Source: Candidatus Paceibacter sp.
GTDB taxonomy: Bacteria > Patescibacteriota > Minisyncoccia > Phycocordibacterales > BOKC01
NCBI GenBank assembly: GCA_020724885.1
Contig: DYGD01000002.1
Coordinates: 3,038-67,037 of the forward strand
DNA: 64,000 nucleotides
Direction of reading: 5' to 3'
Part shown: positions 1-50,331 of the stretch, piece after piece
How the letters are laid out: each line of letters opens with the position of its first letter
Numbering within the stretch: position 1 is the first letter of the stretch
Position numbers and translations under genes: made by a program
The notes under the pieces: generated by a model
What the model saw: only the letters and a program-made list of their open reading frames with translations
Told to the model about the DNA's origin: nothing
Databases searched by the model: none

Positions 1-1135
1 TCCCCGATAAGAACAATTAATTCTCTGTGTCGCCACGGAGGTCGGACTATATCATTACCTCACTTTGAACTGTCGCAAAGAATACACTCTCGCAGGCGCC
101 TCATAAGACTCAATGGGTTGTTTGAGAAGCGCTTGCTTTTCAATAGAGGGCCAGAATTTAGACGTGTGCGTTATTTGCACACCGTCTATAAATCCGACAC
201 ACTCGTGAAATCTGCGTATATCTTTCTCGGTTTCTATTTTTACTTTGCCATCCCTTGTCACATTCCGAGCTGTGATGCCCAAAACGCGCAAAAGTTCGGC
301 ATATTCTTTCCGCAGCTGCGGATGTGCACACGCAAGGTACACGCCGCGAATCACCCATTGGGTACCGCCATTCGTGCCTTTACGTCGCGCAACGTAGAGA
401 TTCACTCCTCCGTCGCAACTGAATGCTGCTTTCAGGAAATCTGACGCAACGTCGTGTTGCAGAAGTTCCTGAATCGGCAGATGAGCATCGGTGTGCTCGC
501 CGTTGCGACGCAAAGTCCGGAATGTCCCGAACCTTTTTGTGAATGCGTCTCTCGCTTCTTTAGAATTGACGATTGCGCGATAAAGTCCGTCGCTGGTTTT
601 GCCAAGACGAACGCGAGACGCCGGCAGTGCGAAACACTGCATCATGCATTCTCGGAATATCGCGACGAGTCGCTCCGATTTATTGCTGAAGTAGAACCGC
701 CAACTGCTTTTGCCTTTCGGTGAAAGACAGCCATCGGTATATAGAAGCCCGATTAATATTGCTGTTGCTTGATTCATTGTGAGGTATTCGGCGTATAGTC
801 TCTGAGGATCCTCTTATATGCTAGATAATGTGGGGAACCGGTGTTCCCCAAAAGGTCAGGTTCGGGGCTGATTGATTTTACAGCTACCCCGCAACGTCGG
901 TGAGGTGATCAACCCCTCACACATGGTCATCCCATAGCGCGATGCCCGCACGCCTTGCCATTTCGCTCTGCAGGAGCTACTTTGACTTTTTTACGAACCC
1001 GACCATTATCTAACACACAAAAGTTTCCTGCTGATTGTCCGCACCTGTAACATTTTCACTAACATAATAATTATATCATGTTTAGTAGTTCAGGATTCTC
1101 GGATGTTCCAGCATATAGCCGAATTTACACTCTGA
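1..1135 (-). mobile_element. Intron-like insertion in 16S rRNA (probably group I) carrying a LAGLIDADG ORF; extends past window start
   Basis: 16S homology ends at ~1136. Downstream sequence is not rRNA-like and contains an HE ORF; 3' boundary not in window. Confidence 0.6.
55..777 (-). CDS. LAGLIDADG homing endonuclease (double-motif), intron-encoded in 16S
   Basis: Motifs LIGLLYTDGCL and LKAAFSCDGGV. GC-rich relative to the surrounding genome. Confidence 0.8.
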   Translation of the reverse strand: MNQATAILIGLLYTDGCLSPKGKSSWRFYFSNKSERLVAIFRECMMQCFALPASRVRLGKTSDGLYRAIVNSKEARDAFTKRFGTFRTLRRNGEHTDAHLPIQELLQHDVASDFLKAAFSCDGGVNLYVARRKGTNGGTQWVIRGVYLACAHPQLRKEYAELLRVLGITARNVTRDGKVKIETEKDIRRFHECVGFIDGVQITHTSKFWPSIEKQALLKQPIESYEAPARVYSLRQFKVR

Positions 1136-2210
1136 TGTCGCCATCAGAGGGGACCAGATGCTTGATCCCGTTCGCTACCCACGCTTTCGTGTCTCAGCGT
1201 CAGGAATGCGCCAGTGTACTGCCTTCGCATTTGGTGTTCCCCTAGATATCAACGGATTTCACCCCTACACCTAGAGTTCCGTACACCTCTCGCACCCTCT
1301 AGTCCTGCCGTTTCTCCCGCGCATCTTCGGTTAAGCCGAAGGATTTTACAGGAGACTAACAGAACCGCCTACACACCCTTTACGCCCAATAATTCCGGAT
1401 AACGCTTGGGGCCTCTGTATTACCGCTACTGCTGGCACAGAGTTAGTAGCCCCTTATTCTTCGGGTACTATCAATAAACTTTCTCCCCGACAAAAGGTTT
1501 TTACGTCCCTAAGGACTTCATCAACCACGCGGCGTCGCTCCGTCAGGCTTTCGCCCATTGCGGAAGATTCTCGACTGCGGCCTCCCGTAGGAGTATGGTC
1601 CGTGTCTCAGTACCATCGGTGGGGGTCAGGCTCTCACCTCCCCTAGCCGTCATCGCCTTGGTAGGCCGTTACCCTACCAACTAGCTGATAGCCCGCAGGC
1701 CGCTCCCATAGCGTTCGAAAACTTTGGTATTGCTACAACATCGGGGATTACCCCGCCTTTCGGCGAGCTATACCCGACTATGGGGTGCGTACCTACGTGT
1801 TACTACCTCGTCTGCCGGTTGCCCGTTACCGGGCCCCCTTGACTTGCATGCCTTATCCACGCCGCCAGCGTTCATCCTGAGCTAGGATCAAACTCTTAAT
1901 GAAAATGTTAGAAATTTCCGAAGGAAATTTATTTACATTTTCTTGACCCGCTTAAGTTTTCACGAAGTGAAAATTTTGGCGGGTAATATGTCCACCAAAC
2001 TTTTTGTTTGCACAAAAACTTAGGCGGACAAGAACGGAACAAAACAAAGGATAACATTACCGCGCTTGCGCGCGGAATTTTTAATTCCCAATTCCTAATT
2101 TCTAAATTTGTTCCTAGCTTTTTTGGAATTTTTTTGACTAAACTTGCACTTATTTTTTGAATACATTCTCTATTTTTTGAACATTTCAAATTGTCAAAGA
2201 ACACATCCGG

Positions 2211-5995: not shown

Positions 5996-7321
5996 CTACA
6001 CGCCGTTCGTTATCACTAACGCCTTTAGTGTCTTGAGGCCGATTTTTAAATCAAGCATCAAAGACCGATTCTTGATGTAGTAGAGATCGTAGGAAAGCTT
6101 CGTTTTGGTCTCATCGTAGTTTGGGTCAAACTTCGGCGGATTACGTTGATACAGCTGGGCCCAGCCGGAAAGCCCGGGTTTTATAATATGACGGACATTA
6201 TAATAAGGGACTTTCTTCTCATAAAGTCCAGCAATCTCCGGAATCTCCGGTCTAGGACCTATTAGTGACAAATCACCCTTCAACACATTCCACAATTGGG
6301 GAAGTTCGTCAATTCTTGTCCGCCGTATTAATTTACCGACCATAGTGATTCTTTTGGGTTCTGCGACTGTCATTGACCTGAATTTTACAACCTTAAAAAT
6401 TTTATTGTTTCGACCAACCCTGTTCTGGACAAAAAATAAAGGTCCGCCATCATCCAGCTTGATAGCGATAAAAACAAACGGATAAAATATAAGCGAAAAT
6501 ATACCCAAGGGTAGCGTCGAAACTATATCTATCGTCCTCTTCAAAAAATCAAAAGTTGAGCTGTGGGTCTTTGATATATTTTCAAGAAACCAGTTGTATC
6601 TTAGGAGCGAAAGCGGCACCCGATCAAAAATATCTTCGTAAATTTTATGCATATCTATAAACCTGACTTTCGAAAAAATAAGATTGTAAAAATGGGACAG
6701 GATCGGCTCAACCTTCTCGCTTCTCAAATCAATCGCAATAACTGAAATCTCTTCGGAATAAATTGTCTTCAAAACCTCTTCTTTAAAATCTAAACCCTCA
6801 ATTTCATCCAAATCAACTGACGAAATAAATTGGATCCCATAACGATTATTACTGTTAACCTCTGACCTGAGCTCTTTCATCTCCTCGCCACTACCAACAA
6901 TCATCGCTTTCTGCCTCTTTTGCGGGGTGAAAAAATTCTGCCCCCTCACTCTCCAAAAAAGAATCATAAGAAAAGAAACCGCCAAGTAGATGAACAGGTT
7001 GGTCTTCGGAGTGATGCCAAAGTATGGTATGAAATAAAAGAAGACGATGGCAATTAGAGTATTGATGATTTGGGCATTCAGAATCATACTGGGAAGCCGA
7101 CTCTGGAAAATCAAAGTATGCTTCTCATACAAACCAGCAATAAAGAAAACCAGTAGCCAAACGGCAAAAAGTATGGAAAATGGCTCCAAGTGGTTTAATA
7201 ACAGCTCCCTATTAGGCAGGCCTTGAGACCGAATTAGAAGCATTAGCCAAAGAGAAACTAGGAATATAAAAAGATCCCCCGCGAATAGAAAAAAAGCGTC
7301 TCTTTTACCAAAAAAAGCCAT
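5996..7321 (-). CDS. Polyprenyl-phosphate sugar phosphotransferase (WbaP/WcaJ-like bacterial sugar transferase)
   Basis: N-terminal TM segments; C-terminal ELPQLWNVLKGDLSLIGPRPE sugar-transferase signature. Confidence 0.8.
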   Translation of the reverse strand: MAFFGKRDAFFLFAGDLFIFLVSLWLMLLIRSQGLPNRELLLNHLEPFSILFAVWLLVFFIAGLYEKHTLIFQSRLPSMILNAQIINTLIAIVFFYFIPYFGITPKTNLFIYLAVSFLMILFWRVRGQNFFTPQKRQKAMIVGSGEEMKELRSEVNSNNRYGIQFISSVDLDEIEGLDFKEEVLKTIYSEEISVIAIDLRSEKVEPILSHFYNLIFSKVRFIDMHKIYEDIFDRVPLSLLRYNWFLENISKTHSSTFDFLKRTIDIVSTLPLGIFSLIFYPFVFIAIKLDDGGPLFFVQNRVGRNNKIFKVVKFRSMTVAEPKRITMVGKLIRRTRIDELPQLWNVLKGDLSLIGPRPEIPEIAGLYEKKVPYYNVRHIIKPGLSGWAQLYQRNPPKFDPNYDETKTKLSYDLYYIKNRSLMLDLKIGLKTLKALVITNGV

Positions 7322-7380: not shown

Positions 7381-8574
7381 ATGGTGAACAAAAAAATCCT
7401 ATATATAATCACTAAAGCTGAACCATTCGGCGGCGCCCAGAGATATGTTTTTGATTTGGCAACTAATTTGCCAAAAGAACAATTTCAAGCGGTGGTAACT
7501 TTAGGAGAAGGCAAAACCTTAGAAGAAAAATTACAGAAAGAGGGGGTCAGAACAATCCACCTTAAAAACTCTCAAAGAAACATCAGCCCCCTCAAGGACT
7601 TTTTGCTCTTTTTTGAACTGCTGAAAATTTATAGACGAGAAAAGCCGGATGTTATCCACCTCAACAGCTCCAAAGTCGGTTTCCTCGGCTCCCTCGCCGC
7701 CCAAACTTATTCCCTATACCCTAAACCCCATACCCTAAACCCTAAAATAATTTTCACCGCTCATGGCTGGGCTTTCAACGACAGCCGATTTTTTTTGTCA
7801 AAAATATTCTGGAAATTTCTGCAGTGGCTAACCGTACTTTTAGCTGACCAAACAATCGCGGTTTCAGAAAAAACTAAAAATAATATGAACTGGTCTGGAG
7901 CGAGCGATAAAATCAAAGTTGTTTATAACGGTCTGCCCTCCTTGAATTTTTTGGAAAAAACAGAAGCGCGAATCGAGTTGTCTAAGAAAGACAGACGGTT
8001 AGAAAATATTCCGAAAGACAAAATCTGGATTGGAACAGTTTCCGAATTGCACAGAAACAAAGGCCTGGATTTAATGATTGAGGCATTATCAAAAATCAAA
8101 AACGAGAAGGCCAATTGGGTGTTTATAGTCTGTGGCGAAGGTGAAGAACGAGAGAAGTTAAACCAATTAATTCACCAAAAAGAAATGGGGAGCAAAATTT
8201 TTTTGGTCGGTTTGGTTAAAAATGCCGCCACCTATCTGAAAGCCCTTGATATTTTTACCCTGACTTCGCGAACGGAAGGCCTGCCTTATGCTCTCTTGGA
8301 GGCGGGAGCGGCCGGTCTACCGACAATTGCTTCCAACGTCGGTGGCATACCGGAAGTCATACAGCATGGTAAAAACGGGCTACTTTTTGAAAGAGAAGAT
8401 GTGGGCGAGCTAAAGAGGCAACTAGAAGACACCCTCGGAGATGAAGGAAGAGTGAGTCTTTTCGGAGCCAGTTTGCAAAAAAGTATAGCGGAGAAATTTT
8501 GTCTAGGTAATATGTTAAAATTAACAGAAAGTATTTATTGCTTTAAACACCCACAAAATGGAAGAGGAAAATAA
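7381..8574 (+). CDS. Glycosyltransferase family 4 (GT-B)
   Basis: EGLPYALLEAGAAGLPTIASNVGGIPEV motif typical of GT4. Confidence 0.8.
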   Translation: MVNKKILYIITKAEPFGGAQRYVFDLATNLPKEQFQAVVTLGEGKTLEEKLQKEGVRTIHLKNSQRNISPLKDFLLFFELLKIYRREKPDVIHLNSSKVGFLGSLAAQTYSLYPKPHTLNPKIIFTAHGWAFNDSRFFLSKIFWKFLQWLTVLLADQTIAVSEKTKNNMNWSGASDKIKVVYNGLPSLNFLEKTEARIELSKKDRRLENIPKDKIWIGTVSELHRNKGLDLMIEALSKIKNEKANWVFIVCGEGEEREKLNQLIHQKEMGSKIFLVGLVKNAATYLKALDIFTLTSRTEGLPYALLEAGAAGLPTIASNVGGIPEVIQHGKNGLLFEREDVGELKRQLEDTLGDEGRVSLFGASLQKSIAEKFCLGNMLKLTESIYCFKHPQNGRGK

Positions 8575-11351: not shown

Positions 11352-11462
11352 GGGTCTTGAGCGCTTTGTGTTGGCGACTAGCTACTCTCCCCTTGCGAGT
11401 ACCATCGCCACTACTGTGCTTAACTTCCGAGTTCGGAATGGAATCGGGTGTACCCACAGCGT
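11352..11462 (-). rRNA. rrf: 5S rRNA
   Basis: Minus-strand sequence CCGATTCCATTCCGAACTCGGAAGTTAAGCACAGTAGTGGCGATGGTACTCGCAAGGGGAGAGTAG matches the 5S consensus. Confidence 0.85.
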
Positions 11463-11852
11463 TTAATCACCAACACAAAAAACTCAAGATTCCAAGAACA
11501 AAAACAGGCAAAACTTTGATTGCATAAAAGAGAGCAAAACCTTGCGATTTTCAAATTTCCCGATGAGATTGATTTATTAGTACGCCTCGGCTCAACACAT
11601 TACTGTGCTTACACCTGGCGCCTATCAACGTGATCATCTCTCACGAATCTTAATGATTCCTAATCTTGGGGTGGGCTTCCCTCTTAGATGCTTTCAGAGG
11701 TTATCCCTTCCGAACTTAGCTACCCAGCGGTGCTCCTGGCGGAACAGCTGGTAGACCAGAGGTTCGTTCCTCGAGGTCCTCTCGTACTATCGAGAACTCC
11801 CCTCAAGAATCAACGCCTGCAGTAGATAGGAGACCAACCTGTCTCACGCAAA

Positions 11853-12160
11853 AGTAGCTCACTAGGCGCTAGGCTTTGGACCTTAGGATCTAGGAACACC
11901 GCCGTTACCGGCGGGATCGGACGATACACTCGCGGTCAATCCGCGGTTGGTTTGTCGTCTCTACAAGGATTTTACTCCTCTCGGTGTTGTCCTTCTAAGG
12001 ATTCCACCGATAACCCCAACTTGTCACTGAATTAGATTCAGTGCCGCCGTGATTTGATTGGTTTCTATCTCTATTCGTAGACGAAAAGTTCGATTACGTC
12101 GTTATGAGCGGATTCAGACGGTACTTATACCGATACTTGACAAAATCTATTTTTATCAGT
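11853..12160 (-). mobile_element. ORF-less intron-like insertion (~305 nt) in 23S near E. coli site ~2585-2593
   Basis: Exon reads GCTGGGTTCAGACCGT [insert] CGTGAGACAGGTTGG versus contiguous E. coli GCTGGGTTTAGAACGTCGTGAGACAGTTCGG. Confidence 0.6.
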
Positions 12161-12289
12161 ATAACTACGGTCTGAACCCAGCTCGCGTACCTTTTTAATT
12201 GGCGAACAGCCAAACCCTTGGAAGCTTCTCCACCTCCAGGATAAGGTGAGCCGACCACTTTCAATCCCCATGTTGCCATGGGAGCAGAC

Positions 12290-13140
12290 TATACCTTTGC
12301 TTATATCCTAACTATAAGCACCAGCGTGTTATGGCAATGTTTTATCAAATTTAATTGAGGCATTTGCCATCTGTTCACTTAAGAACAAGTCGTTACGGGG
12401 CAATACAACCAATCTTGTATTCCATCGGATGGACGATGTATGGTTTTATAAGATTAATCATTTTGAGAGTTTCGGATTTATTTGCATACATCCGAAATCC
12501 TTTGTCACGATCCTTATGGTGAACCATTTGAATACCAAATTTTTTATAAATAGCATTTTCAAGAATTTTTATTTCCTCTAGCACAAAAGAATAAGTGCTG
12601 ATATCAATAATCCCTTTGTTAAAGGATCCGTCGTCCATAATCCATACTGCCATAGATTGAGGATTGAGATCGACTCCGATATCTTTTGGAATTATTTTCC
12701 TACCAACCCTATATCCATCCCCAACATAAAACCTATTGTAGATTTTTGTTAATAATGGATGTCTCACTGTCCTAAACCACCAAGATTTTCGATATTTACT
12801 TCCATTTTCATCATATCGATAACTTATCTTTGGTTCAGTTAGTACCAGGTCTTTCAATACAGAATACTTATACTCTGTATATTCTTTTTGAGCTAATCCC
12901 TGTTCTATTTTGAAGTTAGCATTTACTGCTCCCTTCCCCATTCTCATTGTTCCATCCCCAAGCAAACAACCCACTAAAAGTGAAAGTTGCTCGTCAGTCA
13001 GAAACATTTTTTCTTTAACGGGAATTAAATCCTTGTGCCAATATTTTGTTGCATAGCTTCCCACGGTGTTGACCATACTATAACGCGAATTATAACATGG
13101 CTTTCTCCGTTATGAGCTGATTTAATGTGCATGAAAAATC
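12290..13140 (-). mobile_element. Intron in 23S (near E. coli ~2500, after GGCACCTCGAT) carrying a LAGLIDADG ORF
   Basis: Exon AACAGGCTGGTTCCGCCTAAGAGTCCATATCGACGGCGGAGTTCGGCACCTCGAT is interrupted and resumes at TCGGCTCACC ~12285. Confidence 0.65.
12393..13076 (-). CDS. LAGLIDADG homing endonuclease (intron-encoded)
   Basis: Motifs LLVGCLLGDGTM and AVWIMDDGSF. Confidence 0.8.
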   Translation of the reverse strand: MVNTVGSYATKYWHKDLIPVKEKMFLTDEQLSLLVGCLLGDGTMRMGKGAVNANFKIEQGLAQKEYTEYKYSVLKDLVLTEPKISYRYDENGSKYRKSWWFRTVRHPLLTKIYNRFYVGDGYRVGRKIIPKDIGVDLNPQSMAVWIMDDGSFNKGIIDISTYSFVLEEIKILENAIYKKFGIQMVHHKDRDKGFRMYANKSETLKMINLIKPYIVHPMEYKIGCIAP

Positions 13141-13289
13141 ATACACACGAGAGAATTGTTCGTATTCTCCCCCTCGACATTCGGTATCTATCGAGGTGCC
13201 GAACTCCGCCGTCGATATGGACTCTTAGGCGGAACCAGCCTGTTCATTGTTTTAGCTGGTGAATAGACTATATCATCACCCCGCCTTGG

Positions 13290-14170
13290 CGGGGGACGGC
13301 GTATTAGTATAAATTCTTGTTCGATAGAAATTTATACTCCATTCACAAAAAGTGAATGAGTCGTTACGGGGTCAAAGAGGTGTTTGATTCTCCTAATTTG
13401 TATTGCATTGAAGGTATAACATATTCTCGAATTAGTTCGTGGAGCTTTTTTGTTTCGTTCACTCCAAAAAATAATGCGTAACCCTTCTCTTTTTTGTCGT
13501 AAATTTTTGGTTTTAGGTCAAAATTTTCGACTATTGCATTTTCTAACAATGAAGACTCTTTTTGGGATACTCTGCCGAGATAAATATAGCTAGATTTATC
13601 TCTCAAGTAGTAGTATCCGTCATCCATATACCAAACCGCCAAAGCCAATGGAGCAGTTAATAATTCGGAAATATTTTTCGGCACTTTCTTTTTGCCATCT
13701 TCGTAGAAAATATTTCTCCATTTGCCGATCTCTGGCGAAGCATTGGACTGCCATCGCCAATATCCGTATTGCTTTCTGGTAATCGGATGAATTCTTTCTA
13801 GATGAGACGGTTTTCCTTGGAAAAGGCGCGGGAATTGACTTCCCTTCCAGATTAAATAATCTTTCTGCTTTTCTCCCTGCTCAAATCTAATTCTCGCGTT
13901 TTGAGAACCAGTTTTTTGCAGAAACGCGTCTCCCAACACAGAACCTATTATTATAGATTCCTGCCTTTTGGTTAATTTCATTGTGTTTACATTTTATCAC
14001 CTCTCGACTTCCCACGGGATTGTGCACTCTAAAACTCTTTTGTAAGAGAGACCTGTGCGTTTCCCCCGTTATAAGCCGTTCTTATTCCTGCTCTTGTGGA
14101 TCAAGAAAACAGGAACGCAAGATTTAATCTCGCTTCTCCGCAGATTACTCTGCGGGAGGACAACAAACGC
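13290..14170 (-). mobile_element. Intron in 23S (near E. coli ~2449, after CCCCGGGGA) carrying a LAGLIDADG ORF
   Basis: Exon ...GGATAAAAGCTACCCCGGGGA at ~14171-14200; exon resumes at AACAGGCTGG ~13250. Confidence 0.65.
13364..13981 (-). CDS. LAGLIDADG homing endonuclease (intron-encoded)
   Basis: Motifs IIIGSVLGDAFL and AVWYMDDGYY. Confidence 0.8.
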   Translation of the reverse strand: MKLTKRQESIIIGSVLGDAFLQKTGSQNARIRFEQGEKQKDYLIWKGSQFPRLFQGKPSHLERIHPITRKQYGYWRWQSNASPEIGKWRNIFYEDGKKKVPKNISELLTAPLALAVWYMDDGYYYLRDKSSYIYLGRVSQKESSLLENAIVENFDLKPKIYDKKEKGYALFFGVNETKKLHELIREYVIPSMQYKLGESNTSLTP

Positions 14171-14363
14171 CTTATTTCAGGCGTCATCCCCGGGGTAGCT
14201 TTTATCCGATAATCTTTGGCCGCATCTAAAGCGCGCCAGCGGTTCACTTAGCCCTGCTTTCGCATCTGCTTGAGACGTACCTCTCACAGTTAAGCCAGCT
14301 TATGCCTATACACTATCGGCACGGTTTCCATTCGCGCCTAGCTGACCTTAATGGACTCCTCCG

Positions 14364-14996
14364 TTACTTTTTAGGCAATGTGTTACCCAATTTATATTTC
14401 ATAGAAGGAAGAATGTGCGGCTTAATAAGTTCCTTGAACTTTTTGGCTGACTGAGATTGTATATACAATCTCCAATACTTCCCTTTTTGCTTATGAAGTG
14501 ATGTTTGAAGATCAAACTTATTCTTTAAGATACTCTGAATGCCTTCTAACTCATCTCTACCGTATCCAAGCGTGTGTATTACATATGTTTGATGTCGAGT
14601 AGATTTGAGCGAACCATCATCCATAAACCAGATCGCCAAGCTTAGAGGAGTAAACAACTTCTCAACCACTGTTGGAATAATTTTCTTACCTTCTTGATAA
14701 AAAATCCTTCCAAAACTTCTGAATGCTTCGTGAGAATATGTTCTCACTCCTACATACACCTTTCCATTTTTAACCTTTGTGTATGGTGTGCTTGGTATCC
14801 ATGATTTTAACTCTCGGTAAAGCCATACCAAATATTCATTTTGAGCACCACAGTGTTCAATCTTCAATCTATATGTCTCACCTTTATCCTGAGTCTCAAG
14901 ATGACCGTCTCCAAGTAAAGTGCCAACGATTATTTCTTGCTGGCGCTTCGTCAAGACTAAGCTCTTCTTGAGTTCGCGGATAGCTTTAGTATTCAT
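14364..14996 (-). CDS. LAGLIDADG homing endonuclease (intron-encoded; stop codon lies ~10 nt inside the downstream 23S exon)
   Basis: Motifs IIVGTLLGDGHL and AIWFMDDGSL. Last codons cct aaa aag taa overlap exon sequence CCUAAAAAGUAACGGAGG. Confidence 0.8.
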   Translation of the reverse strand: MNTKAIRELKKSLVLTKRQQEIIVGTLLGDGHLETQDKGETYRLKIEHCGAQNEYLVWLYRELKSWIPSTPYTKVKNGKVYVGVRTYSHEAFRSFGRIFYQEGKKIIPTVVEKLFTPLSLAIWFMDDGSLKSTRHQTYVIHTLGYGRDELEGIQSILKNKFDLQTSLHKQKGKYWRLYIQSQSAKKFKELIKPHILPSMKYKLGNTLPKK

Positions 14997-15355
14997 CGGG
15001 TTCTTGTTTTCACAAGACTCACTGTCGCCAGTGAGATCGGACTATATCTTCATCCTTAATTATAAAGGATGGTTGGTGTTTAGTCTCTACGGGTGTTTAT
15101 GTGCTGGATAGTGAGGGGGAGCGTTAACTGGTAACGCTCCCCCTAGTGAACCCGCCAACATGGTATTTGCCGTAGCATGGAGGACGGGATCCACTATTCA
15201 ACACACAAACTTCCCTCGGAATTGTCTCTTTACAGAGAGTTTTTCCGATATGACCAACTTTTTCCGCCCCGATTCACATCGGGGGGTCCCCCTAATTTGT
15301 TTTTTTCGGAGTCGGAGTAACTCCATGAGGCGCCTGATTTCAAGACACGAAAAAT
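14376..15355 (-). mobile_element. Intron in 23S (domain V region ~E. coli 2250s) carrying a LAGLIDADG ORF; contains a 13-bp GC hairpin (gggggagcgttaac/gttaacgctcccc)
   Basis: Exon GTGGGGCGCTTTCCTTC at ~15356-15372; exon resumes at CCTAAAAAGTAACGGAGGAG ~14376. Boundaries approximate. Confidence 0.55.
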
Positions 15356-15689
15356 CATGTCCTGAAGGAAAGCGCCCCACTTAAACTGCCCACCAGATAA
15401 TGTCCCTTGCCGTTTTTGCCGACGAGGTTAGAACATATCCTTTCACAGAGTGGTATTTCACTGGCGACTCCATGCCGACCGAAACCGGCACTTCAAAGTC
15501 TCCCACCTATGCTACGCAGTAAAAAAATAAGCTCAATATCAAGTTGCAGTAAAGCTCCCGGGGTCTTTTCGTCTAACTGCAGGTAACCGGCATCTTCACC
15601 GGTATTGTATTTTCACCGAGCAAGTCCCCGAGACAGTTGCCCACTCGTTACGCCATTCGTGCACGTCTCTAATTAAGAGACAAGGAATT

Positions 15690-15900
15690 ACGCTCTTCTA
15701 TCCCTTTAACAGAAGGACCATGTCTTCATCTCTGCTTATTAAGCAGAGCGCACGGCGTATGGCCTCTCATATGAGCCGTGATTGGACTATTCTTGTGTCA
15801 CCACAAGAAAGGTAGCTTTCGCATAATTTATTTGTTTATCTCCATAACGATCCCAGTCCTTCTGATTCCCTTAAAAAGAGAATCAGAACCTTAGGATCGT
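15690..15900 (-). mobile_element. ORF-less intron-like insertion (~215 nt) at the classic 23S site 1917 (after CCUAAGGU)
   Basis: Exon GTCGGTCGTAACTATAACGATCCTAAGGT [insert] AGAAGAGCGTAATTCCTTGTC versus contiguous E. coli sequence. Confidence 0.6.
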
Positions 15901-16077
15901 TATAGTTACGACCGACATTCACCAGGGCTTATAACAATCACCAATACATCTTGCGACATATCAACGTCGTTACTTGACCTTCTGGCATTGGTCAGGCGTC
16001 ACCCCCTATACATCCTCTTGCGAGTTCGCAGGGAGCTGTGTTTTTGATAAACAGTCGGCAGGCATACTTTAGCTGCG

Positions 16078-16221
16078 GCCCCCGACACCAACTTTGGCAT
16101 CGTTGCATTGTGTGTTTTCGTAATTTTTGTCGCAATACTTCAGATTTTAAGTAAGAAATTATTACTTACTTTAATCTTTGGAGTTGCAACAAAAACACAA
16201 TGCCAAAGTTGGCGTCGGGGG
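16078..16221 (-). ncRNA. ~145-nt stem-loop insertion / intervening sequence in 23S (variable helix near E. coli ~1720-1750) closed by a 22-bp stem
   Basis: cccccgacaccaactttggcat ... atgccaaagttggcgtcggggg inverted repeat (one G-U); the closing stem and ~40 nt of loop are similar to the element at 18655..18797. Confidence 0.55.
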
Positions 16222-17501
16222 CAGGCCTTATTGCGAACTTACGGCCGCTTTTTTGCCGAGTTCCTTGGGGACCTCTCACTCGTTCGCCTTGGTCTTCTCG
16301 ACCTGACTACCTGTGTCGGTTTTGCGGTACGGTTTGAATCTGCTTAACCTTAGAAGTTTTTCTTGGAAGCGCGCTTTACAAAATTTGATCACCCGAAGGT
16401 TCACATTTTCGTTCTGCTTGGGTTTGTGCCTCCCGGATTTTCCTGGGAAACGCCCTCACAGCGCGAACATAAATCCAATAATATGCTTTGTATACTGCAC
16501 TCCGTCCCTCCATCGAAACAAATTCAAGTCACGGAATATTAACCGTGTGTCCATCACCTTCGGCTTTCGCCATCGGCTTAGGCCCGACTAACCCTTCCCT
16601 GATTATCATCGGGAAGGAAACCTTAGTCTTTCGGCGTCCCGGTTTCTCACCGGGATTGCGGTTACTTGTGCCAACATTCTTACTTCCACACGCTCCAGCA
16701 TGGGTTACCCCTTTGCCTTCAACGCAGAGTGGAATACTCTCCTACCACATGTCAATGCGAAGCACTGACACATCCTCAGTTTCGGTATCATGCTTGAGCC
16801 CCGATTATCTTTGGCGCAAAATCTCTGAATAAGTGAGCTGTTACGCTTTCTTTAAAGGATGGCTGCTTCTAAGCCAACCTCCTTATTGTCAGAGAAATCT
16901 TACAACCTTACGCGCACTTAGCATGAATTTAGGGACCTTAACTAGAGATCTGGGCTGTTTCCCTTTTGACCAATGGAGCTTAGCCCCCACAGTCTAACTG
17001 CCAGATTCTGGCTGCGAGTATTCGGAGTTTGATAGGTTTGACGAGGTTTCCCCCTATTCAAACCTTCCAGTGCTCTACCCCCCGCAGAAACATCTGACGC
17101 TAACCCTAAAGCTATTTCGGAGAGAACCAGCTATTACCAAGTTCGATTAGCTTTTCACTGCTTACCACAAGTCATCCGATGGAGTCGCACGACCAACCGG
17201 TTCGGGCCTCCGCACGCCTTTCGGCGCACTTCACCCTGCTCATGGCAAGATCACTTGGCTTCGGGTCTCATGTATACGACTATTATTTCGCGCTTTTAAC
17301 ACTCGGTTTCCCTGTGGCTCCACCCAGTCAAGGGCTTAGCCAGCCGCATACATAAACTCGTTGGCTCATTCTTCAATAGGCACGCCGTGATGGCTCCCCG
17401 CTTTTGAGTTGTAGAAAACTCTACTTCCCAAAAGTGGGGAGCCACTCCGACTCCTTGTAGGCATATGGTTTCAGGTCTATTTCACCGCCCTCACCGGGCT
17501 G

Positions 17502-17541
<40 letters not shown>

Positions 17542-18625
17542 TCTAACGATATTTAGCCTTACCGGTTAGTTCCGGCAGATTCACCCGAGCTATTGATGTC
17601 TCGAGTTACTCAAGAATAGCAACCAAGGAGTTTTTCTTGTTTTCGCCTACAGGGCTATCACCTCCTGGGGCTTCTCTTTCCAGAGAATTCGGCTAACAAA
17701 AAAATATTTTTTACTCCTCTGGCTAGGCCGTGTTGCTATCTTACAACCCCCCTCCCCAGTTTTGAATTATGGAAATTTCCATATCTCAAAACTGGGGAGG
17801 GGTTTGGGCTCTTTCCTTTTCGCTCGCCGCTACTAAGAAAATTCCTATTGGTCTCTTTTCCTCCGGGTACTGAAATGTTTTACTTCCCCGGGTTTGCATC
17901 TCGAACTGGTCGAGATTTCCGCCAAAAGCGGAAGGGTTTCCCCATTCGGACATCTCCGGATCAAAGGTTGCTAGGCACCTCCCCGAAGCATATCGCCGCC
18001 AAGCCGCGTCCTTCATCGCTCGTTAGAACCTAGGCATCCACCATACGCCCTTGAATTCCCATCAGGAAATTCAAAAACCGCTGTCAATGCGAAGCATTGA
18101 CCGCGGACACACGCAGACAGGACGCAGAAATACGCAGAAATCTAACTCGAAACCACATGGCTACGAATCAAGATTCTGCGACCTTCTGCGTTCGTTCTGC
18201 GATATTCTGCGGTCAGTGCTTCGCACTGACATTTTTGCTCTCTTTTATACAATCAATCTGCGCAAAGCGCAGATTTGCCTGTCCCGAAACCCTATCTTCC
18301 GAAAGAATTCCGGGATAATCTGTCTACAACAAATAAAGACCCCTCGACTACGCTCGGAGTAAACTCCTTAGTAATCAAAAGTTTTGTTGTGACAGGATTT
18401 TGTCTGCGATATCGGGCTATGCCCAACTCGCGGAACTTTTGTCAAACAACATTCCTTCATCCATTCTGGCTCTATCTTCCGGCCAAATTTCTGTTGTTTA
18501 ACAGAAATTTGGCCGAGAGACAAAAAAACCGCCTTTTAAGCGGATTTGACTATCACATAACGATAAAATCACCGTCTCCGCTTGAGTTTTGATATTAAAA
18601 AATTTATTAACATAACTTTATTCTA

Positions 18626-24285: not shown

Positions 24286-24470
24286 AATTTTTAGTGTGCT
24301 AATAATAATTTCTACTTTTCCCTTAATGAGCCAGAGACGAACCAGCTCAATTCAAAAAGGGCACTATCAATAAAGACCACTTTTACATTAAAGCAAATGG
24401 CAAAAAAAATCAACTATGGGGGTATTGCCGAGATTATAGAAGACCGCTATTCAGGTAAGGTTTCAAAAAC

Positions 24471-24498
24471 AAAAAACCCCGCTTTCGCGGGGTTTTTT
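24471..24498. terminator. Terminator hairpin aaaaaaccccgc-tttc-gcggggtttttt
   Basis: Perfect stem with flanking A/T runs on both sides. Confidence 0.65.
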
Positions 24499-24506
24499 GT
24501 TGGCCA

Positions 24507-24539
24507 CAGCCACGATTTTGCTTCGCAAAATCGTGGCTG
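24507..24539. terminator. Second tandem hairpin (15-bp stem cagccacgattttgc / gcaaaatcgtggctg, 3-nt loop)
   Basis: Perfect inverted repeat read from sequence. Confidence 0.4.
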
Positions 24540-34092: not shown

Positions 34093-34629
34093 TCAACCAG
34101 TAGACACCAATTTCTCAATACTTTTATCAAGTTCTTCTGGAGACACTTCTTCTGATTTTGAGCTTACTTCAGCAGTAGCCGGACCTGCGCCTCTCGCCTC
34201 CCTGTCTCTCTTCATCGTCAACTTATGAGAATAAATGGTATTCTCTCTAACCGTATCCAACAAAATAAATCTTATAACATTCAGATTATTTTGGAAAGAA
34301 GAATTAACCACCGGAACTTCAGATGGTTTTAATTCAAACTTTACCCAGCCAAAGTAGGCCTGATTGTATTTTTGATTTTTATTGTCAATTTTTTTGACCA
34401 TTGTGTAAGCTAAGGGTCTCAATTTTGGAAAATCTTCGGAAATAAAAAAACCGCCCCGCTCTTCTATAACGGATTTTAAAGCAGATACTTCTTCAGGCAA
34501 TTTTTCTTCGGCAACTGTCGGAGCTAAAAGAAAGCCAATTTCATAGACCTTCAGGCCGTCATTTTCGGACCCGTCTTCGGTCATATTTTCGTCTCTTTTT
34601 TCTTCGTCCATAGGCAGATAGGTTAGCAT
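34093..34629 (-). CDS. rpsF: 30S ribosomal protein S6 (with N- and C-terminal extensions)
   Basis: VYEIGFLLAPT...LRPLAYTMVKK core; rpsF-ssb-rpsR gene order. Confidence 0.8.
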   Translation of the reverse strand: MLTYLPMDEEKRDENMTEDGSENDGLKVYEIGFLLAPTVAEEKLPEEVSALKSVIEERGGFFISEDFPKLRPLAYTMVKKIDNKNQKYNQAYFGWVKFELKPSEVPVVNSSFQNNLNVIRFILLDTVRENTIYSHKLTMKRDREARGAGPATAEVSSKSEEVSPEELDKSIEKLVSTG

Positions 34630-34653
34630 ATAAGCAGGAAATTAGCAACGAAT

Positions 34654-35478
34654 TCAACAAATGACCATAGACCTTAATTTCTCTGTGTTTCCATGCTTCA
34701 ACACTCCTAAATACGAAGTAATGGTTTCCGGCTTCGGATTTCCTTTTATTCTCTTTATCACTCTCCTCCTAGTCGCCGTCCTCAACACCCGGTGTTTGGG
34801 AAAATTCACCCAGCCCAGGAAATCAACTCCGGAAGCGAAGGTTTTTATATAGACCTTATCAGGATGCAAGTTCAATTTGAGCTTGGTTTCAAGAAATTCT
34901 TTGATTTTTGGAATTAAATGTTCAAGTTCTGCTTTGTTGTCTGAAAGAAACACAAAATCATCGGCGTAGCGGATGTAGTATTTTTGTTTGAGTTGGTGTT
35001 TAACAAATTGGTCAAACTCGTTCATATAGACATTGACCAGAAGTTGGGAGGTTAGGTTCCCCAGAGGCAGGCCTTTATTTGGCATTCCAGAGTTGAAGCT
35101 TTTGATGATTGTTTCCAGAAGTTCAATCACTTCCGGTTCAAGGCGGTGTTTCTTTAGAATTTCAATTAGAATGTCTTGGTCAATAGAAGCAAAGAACTTT
35201 CTGATGTCGCACTTCAAGACCCAAGAGGTTCTGGTGTTGTTTTTGCTGACTTTAAAGAAGAATCTCTGGAATCTGGCGATGGCTTTGTGAGTGCCTTTGC
35301 CTATCCGGCAGGAGTATGAATCGGCGATGAATTTTTTATCAAAAAAGGGATAGAGTTGTCGGTAGATGGCGTGGTGGAGCAGGCGGTCCTTGACGCTGGC
35401 TTTGTGGATGGTGCGGGGCTTGGGGTCGGAGATGTTGAATGAATGGTAACTTCCATGCTCATAAGTTAAATTTTTCAA
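34654..35478 (-). CDS. Reverse transcriptase, DGR-type (diversity-generating retroelement RT)
   Basis: Complete RT motifs 1-7: KPRTIHKASVKDRLLHHAI (1), FIADSYSCRIGKGTHKAI (2), LKCDIRKFFASIDQDIL (3), GLPLGNLTSQLLVNVYM (4, LGxxxSQ signature of DGR RTs instead of QGxxxSP), YIRYADDFVFL (5), LKLNLHPDKVYIKT (6), GVDFLGW (7). No maturase/En domain; 274 aa. Confidence 0.8.
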   Translation of the reverse strand: MKNLTYEHGSYHSFNISDPKPRTIHKASVKDRLLHHAIYRQLYPFFDKKFIADSYSCRIGKGTHKAIARFQRFFFKVSKNNTRTSWVLKCDIRKFFASIDQDILIEILKKHRLEPEVIELLETIIKSFNSGMPNKGLPLGNLTSQLLVNVYMNEFDQFVKHQLKQKYYIRYADDFVFLSDNKAELEHLIPKIKEFLETKLKLNLHPDKVYIKTFASGVDFLGWVNFPKHRVLRTATRRRVIKRIKGNPKPETITSYLGVLKHGNTEKLRSMVIC

Positions 35479-35707
35479 ATCTTCATGAAGGGAAAAGACA
35501 TTATCGGCAAGTTTAAGAGAAAACTCTTGAACATCCTTTCTGTTTTGGGCACACGCCCGTTTGTTTCGCCAGAGGACTAACCACCGTGGTAGTCATAGCC
35601 AGAAAACCTCGTCCGCCGGCTGGCGGATTTCAAGACCTTTTGGCTATGACCACTTTTTTCGCAACAGCACTTCAAAGAACAAAAACTGCTTATATGATAC
35701 ACGAAAC

Positions 35708-36658
35708 CTATATTTTGTCAAGGTTAAAAAACTTTACCGCATTTTGCACCAGAGCGGTGCGGACTTTGAAAAAGTCCGCACCGCGTATTTCCGCGATTTT
35801 CTTAACGACTTCTTTGACGTAAATCGGCTCGTTTCTCCGGCCCCGAAACGGCTCTGGCGCCACATACGGACAATCGGTCTCAGCCATTATCCTGTCTAGC
35901 GGCGCGTTTTTTATAATTTCATCATACTGCCGAGCAAATGTAATCACGCCGGTAAAAGACAGAAAAAAACCGGCATCCAAAATTTCTTTAGCTTCGTCCC
36001 AAGAGCCGGCAAAGAAATGGAAGTTAGCCGGAACTTTGGCTTCGGACCTTAAAATTTCTAACGCCTCTCTGTAAGCCGAGCGATCAGAGCCGTTTCGAAC
36101 GTGAAGCATTAGAGGTTTCCCGACCTTGTTTGCTAAAGCGATTTGTTGAGAGAAAGCTTCGCGTTGTTTTTTTTCGGTTTCCGGTGTGCATCTATAATAA
36201 TCCAGCCCGCACTCGCCTATTCCAACCACTTTGGGATGACTTGCCATACTATGATATTTCATTATATCAAAGCGTTCGCCACGAGAGGCAAATTCTTTGC
36301 TACCGGCGCCAAGTTCTTTTTCATCGTGGAATGATTTGTCGGTGTGAATCGGATGAACGCCAACAATAGCATACACCCCCACACCTTTCCTCCGATAGTA
36401 TTCTACGCGCTCCGACTTTGTCGGAGCAATCGGAGGAAAGGTGTGGGGGTAAACCCCTTCTTCATATTTTTCGGCAAGTTCCACGGCCGACTTTGAAGTA
36501 TCTTTCTGCGTGCCGACATTTATCATCCAGACCTTGTTATCCAAAGCGCGTTTTATAACCTCCTCTCGGTCTTCATCATAAGCGGCAAAATTAACGTGAG
36601 CGTGGATATCAATGTATTCAGGCATAAGATTAGGGTTTAGGATACGGTCAATAGCCAA
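35708..36658 (-). CDS. tatD: TatD-family metal-dependent DNase/hydrolase
   Basis: HAHVNF, GIGECGLDYY, LHVRNG, ETDCPYVAP motifs. Confidence 0.85.
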   Translation of the reverse strand: MAIDRILNPNLMPEYIDIHAHVNFAAYDEDREEVIKRALDNKVWMINVGTQKDTSKSAVELAEKYEEGVYPHTFPPIAPTKSERVEYYRRKGVGVYAIVGVHPIHTDKSFHDEKELGAGSKEFASRGERFDIMKYHSMASHPKVVGIGECGLDYYRCTPETEKKQREAFSQQIALANKVGKPLMLHVRNGSDRSAYREALEILRSEAKVPANFHFFAGSWDEAKEILDAGFFLSFTGVITFARQYDEIIKNAPLDRIMAETDCPYVAPEPFRGRRNEPIYVKEVVKKIAEIRGADFFKVRTALVQNAVKFFNLDKI

Positions 36659-49157: not shown

Positions 49158-49233
49158 AAAAACAATTTTATCACTTTTGTAATGACTTACAAAAACAAAA
49201 CTCCCCCGCGCAAGCAGGAGAGAAAGAAGAGAT

Positions 49234-49349
49234 TTGCGAGGAGAGCGGGGTTGTTCCGGTTCCAGTCGTTGTCGAGCCAGTTCCAGTTGACCTTGACGCG
49301 GTTGCCGTTCCAGATGAGGTAGGCAACCTTGCGATTGCCGCCGGACTCC
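49234..49349 (-). repeat. DGR template repeat (TR), 116 bp, in the leader of ileS
   Basis: Minus strand reads ...AAT CGC AAG ... AAC GGC AAC ... AAC TGG AAC TGG ... AAC GAC TGG AAC CGG AAC AAC CCC GCT CTC CTC GCA A (Asn/AAC-rich); identical to VR except at adenines. Confidence 0.85.
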
Positions 49350-49622
49350 TGTTGTGTGTGAAGCGCCGTCCGTGCCACCACCCAGCGTGAATGATTTTTA
49401 TCAATCTTCTGGATTGAATCTTATGCCGCATCTCAAATGCGAGAGCGCTTCAAACCAAGTTCCTTCATTTTTTGAAGTTACCCGCATACCACTCTCCCTG
49501 AAGCCTTGACCACAGGAACTCTCGATATACGGATACTGGTTTCGGTAGCCGGAAGCCGTAACCGCCGGTAACTATTCACCTAATACCGCTTTTATTTATA
49601 TCAAATTTTTTGAGGTACGAAA

Positions 49623-49643
49623 ATGCCGCGCACTGCGTGCGCG
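49623..49643 (-). promoter_or_regulatory. GC hairpin gccgcgcac-tgc-gtgcgcggc ~70 nt downstream of VR (candidate DGR-associated hairpin/cruciform)
   Basis: 9-bp perfect GC stem read from sequence; role inferred from position relative to VR. Confidence 0.4.
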
Positions 49644-49697
49644 GCACAAGATCCAATGGCCAAAGTGCCAAAGCACAGAAACCAAAGGATCAAGAGT

Positions 49698-50249
49698 TCA
49701 AAAATCAAAGGAACTTGCGAGGAGAGCGGGGCAGTCCCGGCGCCAGTCGTCGCCGAGCCAGCGCCAGAGGACCAAGACGCGGTCGCCGTACCAGACGAGG
49801 TAGGCAACCCTGCGACGGCCGCCGGACTCCCGGACAGAACCCCACAGGGAAACCACCTTGTCTTTGAACTCGTCCGGGTAAGTCGTCGGATTGTCGAGCC
49901 AGCCCTTGACCTCCGGGCTCTCCAATGAGCTAGCGCGCTTGATCATACCGGTCTGATCAAGATGTCTAAAGAGTTCAAATCCATCAATCACCCCTCCGCC
50001 TTCTTGTGTTGGATGGAAGTAGAGTTCGTAATCAGGAGGCATCAGCGCCTCGCGAAGCGTTCTGGTGAGAGAACCCTGATTTGTGATCCATCCCTGGGCC
50101 ACATCAGGATCCATGTCTCGAGGCAGACCCCGCGCAACCGCAGACATCAGTTCAGAGAACTGATCAATTCCCATCAGTCCTCCCCGTCCTTCTTTCTTTT
50201 TCCTACCCATTCCGAATTCTCCTTTCTGGCTTACCTCTGATTCGGCCAC
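49698..50249 (-). CDS. DGR target protein with C-terminal variable region (GC-rich gene; probable start at Met26, 50174, preceded by GGAGG)
   Basis: C-terminus ESGGRRRVAYLVWYGDRVLVLWRWLGDDWRRDCPALLA corresponds to TR-encoded ESGGNRKVAYLIWNGNRVKVNWNWLDNDWNRNNPALLA; no signal peptide. Confidence 0.75.
   Translation of the reverse strand: MAESEVSQKGEFGMGRKKKEGRGGLMGIDQFSELMSAVARGLPRDMDPDVAQGWITNQGSLTRTLREALMPPDYELYFHPTQEGGGVIDGFELFRHLDQTGMIKRASSLESPEVKGWLDNPTTYPDEFKDKVVSLWGSVRESGGRRRVAYLVWYGDRVLVLWRWLGDDWRRDCPALLASSFDF
49715..49830 (-). repeat. DGR variable repeat (VR), 116 bp, 3' end of target gene
   Basis: Aligned base-for-base with TR; ~22 mismatches, every one at a TR adenine (coding strand), e.g. 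AAT->CGT, AAC->TAC/GAC/CTC/CGC/TGC, AAG->TTG; ends with GC-rich CCCCGCTCTCCTCGCAA (IMH-like). Confidence 0.85.
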
Positions 50250-50331
50250 AAGCCAAACTTAAGGCATACCATTTTTTCCGAGCTGGAGTATAACATAAAG
50301 TATCCCAAAATGTCAAATAGAAAAGTTCTAT

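Follow-up and report, generated by a model that had tools for sequence, protein, structure and literature searches.

A 5′-truncated reverse transcriptase of the diversity-generating retroelement clade, joined to a target-gene leader, in a Candidatus Paceibacter contig

In the diversity-generating retroelement (DGR) of Bordetella phage BPP-1 (bRT–Avd–TR–Sp, where TR is the template repeat and Sp the spacer; PDB 8ub7 series), the reverse transcriptase (RT) bRT works together with its partner Avd. Cryo-EM of bRT bound to Avd and RNA shows the N-terminal extension (NTE) of the enzyme contacting two Avd protomers, with K29, on an Avd-braced loop, touching the initiating template nucleotide at its 5′ phosphate; bRT depends on Avd for catalysis (bioRxiv 10.1101/2023.10.23.563531). 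DGRs of the candidate phyla radiation (CPR) are treated as a group by Wu et al. 2018 (PMC5758913), and remote variable repeat (VR) targets and action in trans are already known from that study and from Roux et al. 2021 (PMC8144416). Here we analyse a 64,000-nucleotide stretch of a Candidatus Paceibacter sp. contig (DYGD01000002.1; hereafter the window), in which a DGR-type RT open reading frame (ORF) lies between tatD and rpsF (34654..35478, minus strand; 274 aa from a TTG start), 13.75 kb from the single TR/VR pair of the window, which is on the same strand. A first-pass annotation had described this arrangement correctly, and took a trans-acting, split DGR as its simplest reading. We instead find that the RT is 5′-truncated and has lost its NTE, apparently by a deletion, with its own Avd, TR and target gone, and that it is probably an inactive remnant of a canonical cassette, not the engine of a split DGR.

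The truncation is apparent from the 5′ end of the gene. Homologs of the RT are 305–350 aa long with an N-terminus of the form M..ENLLxAWxEFxxGKRxKxDVQEF, and the window RT frame is open for 38 further codons upstream of TTG 35478, with no ATG, GTG or TTG among them. Among 118 homologs, 108 alignment columns reach a conservation of 95% or more; the window RT deviates at six of these, five lying in the first 15 residues of this upstream extension; from KDVQEF on, 102 of 103 conserved columns are kept, the single change being M to V. Because five of five conserved columns are lost before KDVQEF and one of 103 after it, we place the start of true RT homology there with confidence, at about family codon 29–31, which gives a 5′-truncated DGR-clade RT at 34654..35538 (minus strand; family codon ~29 through the stop). 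Among the ~28 missing N-terminal codons are those for the conserved ENLL..GKR motif and for the lysine that matches bRT K29 (residues 7–35 of protein P0003 align with bRT residues 10–38, its GKR lysine K26 corresponding to K29). The first usable start is TTG 35478 at family codon ~50, so that the 274-aa product is without the whole NTE; inspection of the sequence by eye revealed no Shine–Dalgarno before it. An ATG at 35534, made by the junction described below, is out of the RT frame and opens a 19-codon upstream ORF (uORF) whose TGA overlaps TTG 35478; no convincing slippery site for a programmed frameshift from uORF to RT was seen, and no further search was made. The earlier description of an ORF with all seven RT motifs holds for the core motifs RT1–7, but the gene is incomplete, its NTE (the RT0 region) being absent.

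Upstream of the truncated gene lie the promoter and leader of a different kind of gene. A σ70-type promoter, TTGACA-N16-TATCAT (35694..35721, minus strand; 11/12 consensus), sits inside the last tatD codons. The closest intact relative, L001, has a matching AACCTTGACA-N16-TATAAT promoter ahead of its leader, and a second relative, L113, has TTGACA at the equivalent position of the tatD 3′ end, upstream of a DGR-target homolog; by this comparison we read the window promoter as that of the former DGR cassette at the tatD–rpsF site. The leader motif of DGR target genes, a 5′ untranslated region, follows at 35580..35684 (minus strand; covariance model R1, 71.8 bits, E 2.9e-18), the one strong R1 match in the window and ~45 nt from the start of RT homology. 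Its predicted fold (−58.7 kcal/mol, z −2.9) has a long hairpin at 35653..35589, and a second, small hairpin lies at 35558..35547 (both minus strand). Positions 35658..35534 are 78% identical to the leader ahead of the target gene in L001, with near-identical hairpin stems.

Searches with R1 place the same hairpin on the RT strand, 1.5–1.75 kb upstream of the RT and preceding the target gene, in ~28 RT-anchored loci (at 6345–6431 in L001 and at about 2200–2550 in ~28 of L006–L085). A pattern scan finds it in a further set of 23 metagenome loci (L088–L110), each with a TTGACA/TATAAT promoter, the hairpin, a ribosome-binding site (RBS) and then a small gene; five of six apical-stem pairs covary over these 23 sequences. 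The hairpin consensus is GUGGUCAUAGCCAAAAGG…UUUUCUGGCUAUGACYAC, with a covarying apical stem. The 21 distinct genes downstream of the leader all code for small proteins whose C-terminal ends resemble those of CPR DGR targets. Rfam reports nothing at the structured region (gathering thresholds over the whole window; E ≤ 5 over 35400–35800), the motif is absent from Rfam 15, and a scan of IMG/VR viral contigs gave 0 matches; the leader hairpin may be a new cis-regulatory RNA confined to DGR target genes. A weak model match at 24428–24513 is merely a bidirectional terminator and was discarded.

The leader RBS region is joined to RT codon ~29 at 35532..35541 (minus strand), a deletion junction with microhomology (AGAAAGGATG). 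To its left the window matches the L001 leader (…CAAGAAAGGAGGATG) and to its right L001 RT codons 28–35 (…AAGAAAGATGTTCAAGAG); in L001 itself, the leader RBS region CAAGAAAGGAGGATG and RT codons 28–31 AAGAAAGATGTT share 6–10 nt of microhomology. We regard the fusion of the RT body to a target-gene leader as a firm reading of these alignments, and the junction as no artefact of assembly, because L120, assembled independently from another run (SRR6488413), is identical over 6265 of 6265 bases. The suggestion that 35479–35710 might be a spacer-like priming RNA gives way to another identity, the promoter and 5′ leader hairpin that belong to DGR target genes: in canonical loci the element precedes the target gene, ~1 kb from the TR. 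We also rejected the idea that the hairpin is a small insertion in the RT 5′ end with an out-of-frame N-terminal remnant before it, as the whole stretch aligns to the L001 leader.

What the intact arrangement looks like is given by 80 fetched genome loci plus L001–L005. The layout, invariant in this clade, runs from promoter and hairpin leader through the target gene with its VR, the conserved spacer, the TR and the terminator to an antisense Avd and then the RT. All loci with enough upstream sequence have the VR, then ~460 nt on an A-biased TR, then ~430 nt further the RT, all on one strand; an Avd-like ORF lies between TR and RT on the opposite strand in 80 loci, the five others beginning at the RT. 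In L017, this Avd-like ORF hits Pfam bAvd with E 2.6e-9. Three loci considered as lacking TR and VR (L039, L068 and L080) have both, with weaker A bias. The explanation we favour is that a canonical cassette of this kind formerly stood between tatD and rpsF, and that a ~1.5-kb internal deletion, running from the leader RBS region to RT codon ~29 across the microhomology, took the target gene, VR, spacer, TR, Avd and first ~28 RT codons. Promoter, leader, out-of-frame ATG and RT body would be what was left over. Such a remnant would no longer be able to make adenine-mutagenised cDNA, because the lost segment binds Avd and holds the template in the Bordetella enzyme, and Avd is needed for catalysis.

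Cassette context is also what chiefly identifies the RT. Its homologs at 64–77% identity number in the thousands, and relatives of both RT and tatD all come from metagenome-assembled genomes of Patescibacteria/CPR. The ORF matches Pfam RVT_1 (E 2e-27), carries YADD, and has GLPLGNLTSQ (GLPLGNLTSQLLVNVYM) as motif 4, the SQ-containing DGR type that had been noted at first pass. Its top PDB match is 8ub7_A, a 328-aa ‘Reverse transcriptase’ (E 1.8e-39, 139 bits) that we identify as Bordetella bRT because the chain carries the ENLL..GKR N-terminus and K29 described for that enzyme; the scores are 64 bits for group II intron RTs and at most 31 for those of retrons. A phage ‘Reverse transcriptase’ family in PHROGs matches at 307 bits. 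The first-pass annotation had proposed comparison with curated RT families, and this comparison, with bRT best by 75 bits and the other families sub-threshold, assigns the RT to the DGR clade. We hold membership of that clade to be firm, more on the cassette context of the homologs than on the profile and structure matches.

It is very improbable that the enzyme is instead a retron, group II intron or defence-type (DRT/Abi) RT, or that the locus is an assembly chimera. Some profile matches do point that way: the top NCBIfam match is the group II RT/maturase model TIGR04416, with the RT part alone aligned, weaker matches being to Drt3a and retron models, and PADLOC returns generic RT and UG models, all sub-threshold. 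These NCBIfam scores are far under the family cut-offs, however (138 bits against 300 for TIGR04416, 89 against 200, and retron models at most 72 against at least 235), and bRT leads the structure matches with the SQ motif present. Pfam and NCBIfam searches of the ORF find neither a maturase nor an endonuclease domain. A group II intron RT is rejected with no X domain and no group II intron match in Rfam, and a retron with no msr/msd-like element, the upstream structured RNA being a DGR target-gene leader. Homologs, at 64–74% identity, are embedded in a DGR cassette wherever upstream sequence exists, and the recurrence of the junction in the independent assembly speaks against a chimera.

The history of the tatD–rpsF site is consistent with a lost cassette. 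Around the RT the gene order, all on the minus strand, is metG, tatD (35708..36658), RT, rpsF, ssb, rpsR. Relatives whose tatD is 72–75% identical have an AI-2E transporter, metG, tatD, rpsF, ssb and rpsR with no RT, and efp and recA on the opposite strand. Two loci, L113 (GCA_016860785.1, BOKC01000002.1; 5483..5977) and L114, have between tatD and rpsF a 164-aa ORF homologous to the DGR target of the window (…LHPTQ.DG.VI.G…SLESPEVKGW…PTTYPDEFK.K…LW…, with C-terminal end PALLAS). As in the window target, its VR-like end is GC-rich and resembles an initiation-of-mutagenic-homing sequence (CCCGCTCTCCTCGC); neither TR, Avd nor RT is present at tatD–rpsF in either locus. We conclude with confidence from these comparisons that the site once held a full DGR, and the window and L113 look like complementary remnants of one ancestral insertion. 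Elsewhere in L113, a 113-aa ORF resembling 23S-rRNA-IVP/bAvd lies between ssb and rpsR (7400..7741). The insertion seems to have remodelled the 3′ end of tatD, because the last tatD codons contain the DGR promoter TTGACA. At 316 aa, the window tatD exceeds its closest homologs, which have 276–290 aa (75% identity, 96% query coverage).

On the other side of the RT, homology to the rpsF-upstream region of the RT-less loci L111, L113 and L115 resumes directly past the RT stop codon. A promoter-like block there, GTTGCTAA-N-TAACCT-ATCTGCCT (34612..34653, minus strand), aligns with all three and is followed by the conserved rpsF ATG at 34611 (MDEEK); the mechanical ORF start at 34629 (MLTYLPMDEEK) uses an upstream in-frame ATG that falls within the block. 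The RT is adjacent to rpsF and on the same strand, as first described, but the 25-nt distance given is 24 nt to the first in-frame ATG and 42 nt to the conserved one. Co-transcription of the RT with rpsF, which had been taken to follow, loses its force, since rpsF keeps its own promoter-like block, found also in RT-less relatives, and is therefore not dependent on read-through from the RT.

The TR/VR pair stands apart from all this. The window has one long direct repeat pair, at 49227..49349 and 49708..49830 (minus strand), 82% identical with 19–22 mismatches, essentially all at TR adenines. The downstream copy (49227..49349) is the TR because every core mismatch there is an A on the minus strand. 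The VR forms the C-terminus of a DGR target gene (49698..50210, minus strand; 170 aa from ATG, or 183 aa from GTG 50249) whose protein, P0241, has homologs (P0242–P0245) and no Pfam domain. Its promoter, TTGACA-N18-TATACT (50287..50316, minus strand), fits 11/12 consensus positions, and its leader is short and hairpin-free, with no R1 match. A conserved non-coding element, the central ~200 nt of the VR–TR spacer (49400..49605, minus strand), recurs at 67–80% identity in the corresponding place of at least 26 canonical loci and at ~95% in L119; it is probably the 5′ part of the TR-containing RNA. After the TR comes an intrinsic terminator (49191..49222, minus strand) with a 9-bp stem (49222..49201), a UUGC loop and then TTTTGTTTTT. 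At least 20 canonical loci conserve this terminator at 82–90%, and in them the antisense Avd gene overlaps it with its 3′ end; in the window, the ileS promoter and start codon follow directly. The TR RNA of the clade thus seems to be a discrete, free-standing transcription unit, a ~400-nt non-coding RNA, and its counterpart in function to the Bordetella Sp may be situated upstream of the TR. An antisense Avd ‘tail’ after the TR (KQNSPAQAGEK) is indistinguishable from conservation of the terminator hairpin and was not used as a sign of a lost Avd.

The same module occurs in another organism (L118/L119), with the TR core 100%, the spacer ~95% and the pre-VR coding region ~85% identical. Over 49191..49922 the match to L118 349–1073 and L119 is 87–100% and ends exactly past the T-run of the terminator, where Bac_transf follows there and ileS here. 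Because the housekeeping genes of L118/L119 (Bac_transf, epimerase, SecD) are merely 66–72% identical in nucleotides to those of the window, the module looks to be either horizontally shared or extraordinarily constrained. We regard it as firmly a separate, self-contained unit without an RT. The window VR differs from the L118/L119 module VR at 23 TR adenines and at three other positions, a pattern we read as at least one round of mutagenic homing since the two modules parted, both without an adjacent RT. As the module is self-contained and RT-less in two genomes, some RT must have served it in trans; to that extent the earlier notion of a trans-acting RT stands, but a working split DGR built on the truncated RT at 35 kb is not the reading we prefer. 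In the explanation we favour, the module would never have had an adjacent RT, or would have lost it long ago, and would have been diversified in trans, whether by the RT at 35 kb while that was still untruncated or by some other DGR of the genome.

The last of these possibilities can be put more strongly, with the module served by another complete DGR (RT plus Avd) elsewhere in the genome and the RT at 35 kb an irrelevant relic. Several CPR contigs carry two RTs of the clade (L007 and L016 share a contig; L074 has two). Many leader-bearing genes of target type have no TR, Avd or RT within 2–14 kb, and service in trans appears common. The module is far closer to L118/L119 than the housekeeping genes are, which suggests that it arrived independently of the resident cassette. 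Against these points, the 64 kb hold no second RT or Avd, and the proposal is compatible with a remnant RT, being really a sub-case of that explanation. We consider it possible in this stronger form, though on balance doubtful.

A functional split DGR would have the truncated RT, made from TTG 35478 and perhaps coupled to the uORF, copy TR RNA encoded 13.7 kb off without an NTE, Avd being absent or outside the window. Several observations favour it and by the same token weigh against an inactive remnant. The RT body runs for 310 codons without stop or frameshift, and its mean identity to 112 outgroup RTs (0.679) is no lower than that of its nearest relatives (0.667–0.675), whose loci are intact where checked (L001–L005). 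With neither accelerated evolution nor decay, either the deletion is recent on the scale of RT divergence, or the body is still under selection. The promoter before the RT is strong, and the uORF TGA overlaps the TTG start. The module is itself intact, promoter and terminator included, and its TR core matches that of L119 at 100%, against a difference of ~5% in the spacer; being RT-less in two genomes, it needs a cognate RT that reaches the TR RNA in trans. With 23 TR-adenine positions differing between the two module VRs, an RT-less module has, by our reading, been diversified in trans, either in this lineage or in its donor. Avd could be encoded outside the visible 64 kb, and Wu and colleagues, in 2018, are said to have described some DGRs without a recognisable Avd. 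Finally, avd, TR and brt act in trans in Bordetella DGR experiments cited in PMC5758913.

We nevertheless judge a functional split DGR unlikely. The conserved NTE is lost together with the lysine equivalent to bRT K29, and bRT catalysis needs Avd, which docks on the NTE. The first-pass statement that the RT has no maturase, endonuclease or Avd partner agrees with our domain searches and with Avd profile searches of the window: a profile built from 81 relative Avds gives a best E of 0.83 in the 64 kb and an IVP-like query 1.4, no search aimed at HRDC having been made, whereas Avd is adjacent in every relative with upstream sequence. No Shine–Dalgarno was seen before the TTG, and the leader RBS abuts the out-of-frame ATG. 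Nor is VR variation seen among assemblies. The VR and P0241 are identical on all five contigs carrying them, and L086 and L087, which come from different samples, match the window base for base over 9.5 kb, VR included; as these are consensus assemblies, the test is weak. A viral-contig scan for the TR gave 0 matches, as did a metagenome pattern scan with N at each A of the TR, the scanned collection evidently lacking this contig. More improbable still is the fullest version of the idea, that the NTE-less RT, driven by a captured target-gene promoter and leader, is active without Avd and diversifies a horizontally shared RT-less module in trans. In a weaker form, ‘satellite’ TR/VR modules that have all their cis RNA elements but no RT would be mobile units and would rely on whichever DGR RT their host has.

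Set beside BPP-1, the window RT shares the fold and the motifs LGxxxSQ and YxDD, and its intact relatives also share ENLL..GKR and an Avd-like four-helix partner; TR-to-VR differences are adenine-specific in both systems. Unlike bRT, the window RT has no equivalent of bRT residues ~1–33 (~1–52 if counted from the TTG), no Avd gene was found in the window, and the TR is 13.7 kb away. In the clade of the window RT, moreover, the Avd gene between TR and RT is antisense, and no 140-nt Sp runs into the RT gene, a terminator within ~50 nt of the TR closing the TR RNA. The canonical CPR cassettes (L001, L017 and more than 60 loci) are nearer, with an RT 64–77% identical and the same leader hairpin, spacer element, TR terminator and target family; there, however, target/VR, TR, Avd and RT are contiguous within ~1.7 kb, whereas the tatD–rpsF site in the window has a leader and a truncated RT, and the sole TR/VR pair of the window forms a module apart, with neither RT nor Avd. 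DGRs with non-adjacent or remote targets (Treponema and others), as presented in PMC5758913 and PMC8144416, similarly have physically separated parts and need action in trans. In those accounts VR-bearing target genes lie away from the RT, whereas here the TR and the whole cis RNA unit do so, and the RT is also without Avd and its own N-terminus. Because remote VR targets and trans action are already known, a working split DGR here would vary a known system, and would be unusual mainly in its remote TR and in an RT without NTE and Avd.

The rRNA genes of the window (23..1903 and 11369..18050, minus strand) are fragmented, the 23S being matched by Rfam in four separate pieces, with group I intron matches at 15018–15367 and 23–1174. 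Fragmented, intron-bearing rRNA genes are typical of CPR genomes.

For annotation, these observations indicate that seven core RT motifs and a DGR signature can belong to a dead remnant, and that the NTE and Avd should be checked before a split DGR is called. Were the RT active without Avd and NTE after all, it would represent a naturally minimised two-locus DGR. The covarying 5′ leader hairpin appears specific to target-type genes of Patescibacteria DGRs and is new to Rfam, and a free-standing TR RNA unit would mean that the RT of this clade always acts in trans at the RNA level. An RT-less module that is 87–100% identical in genomes whose housekeeping genes are only ~70% identical, with VRs differing at TR adenines, suggests mobile modules diversified by an RT encoded elsewhere.

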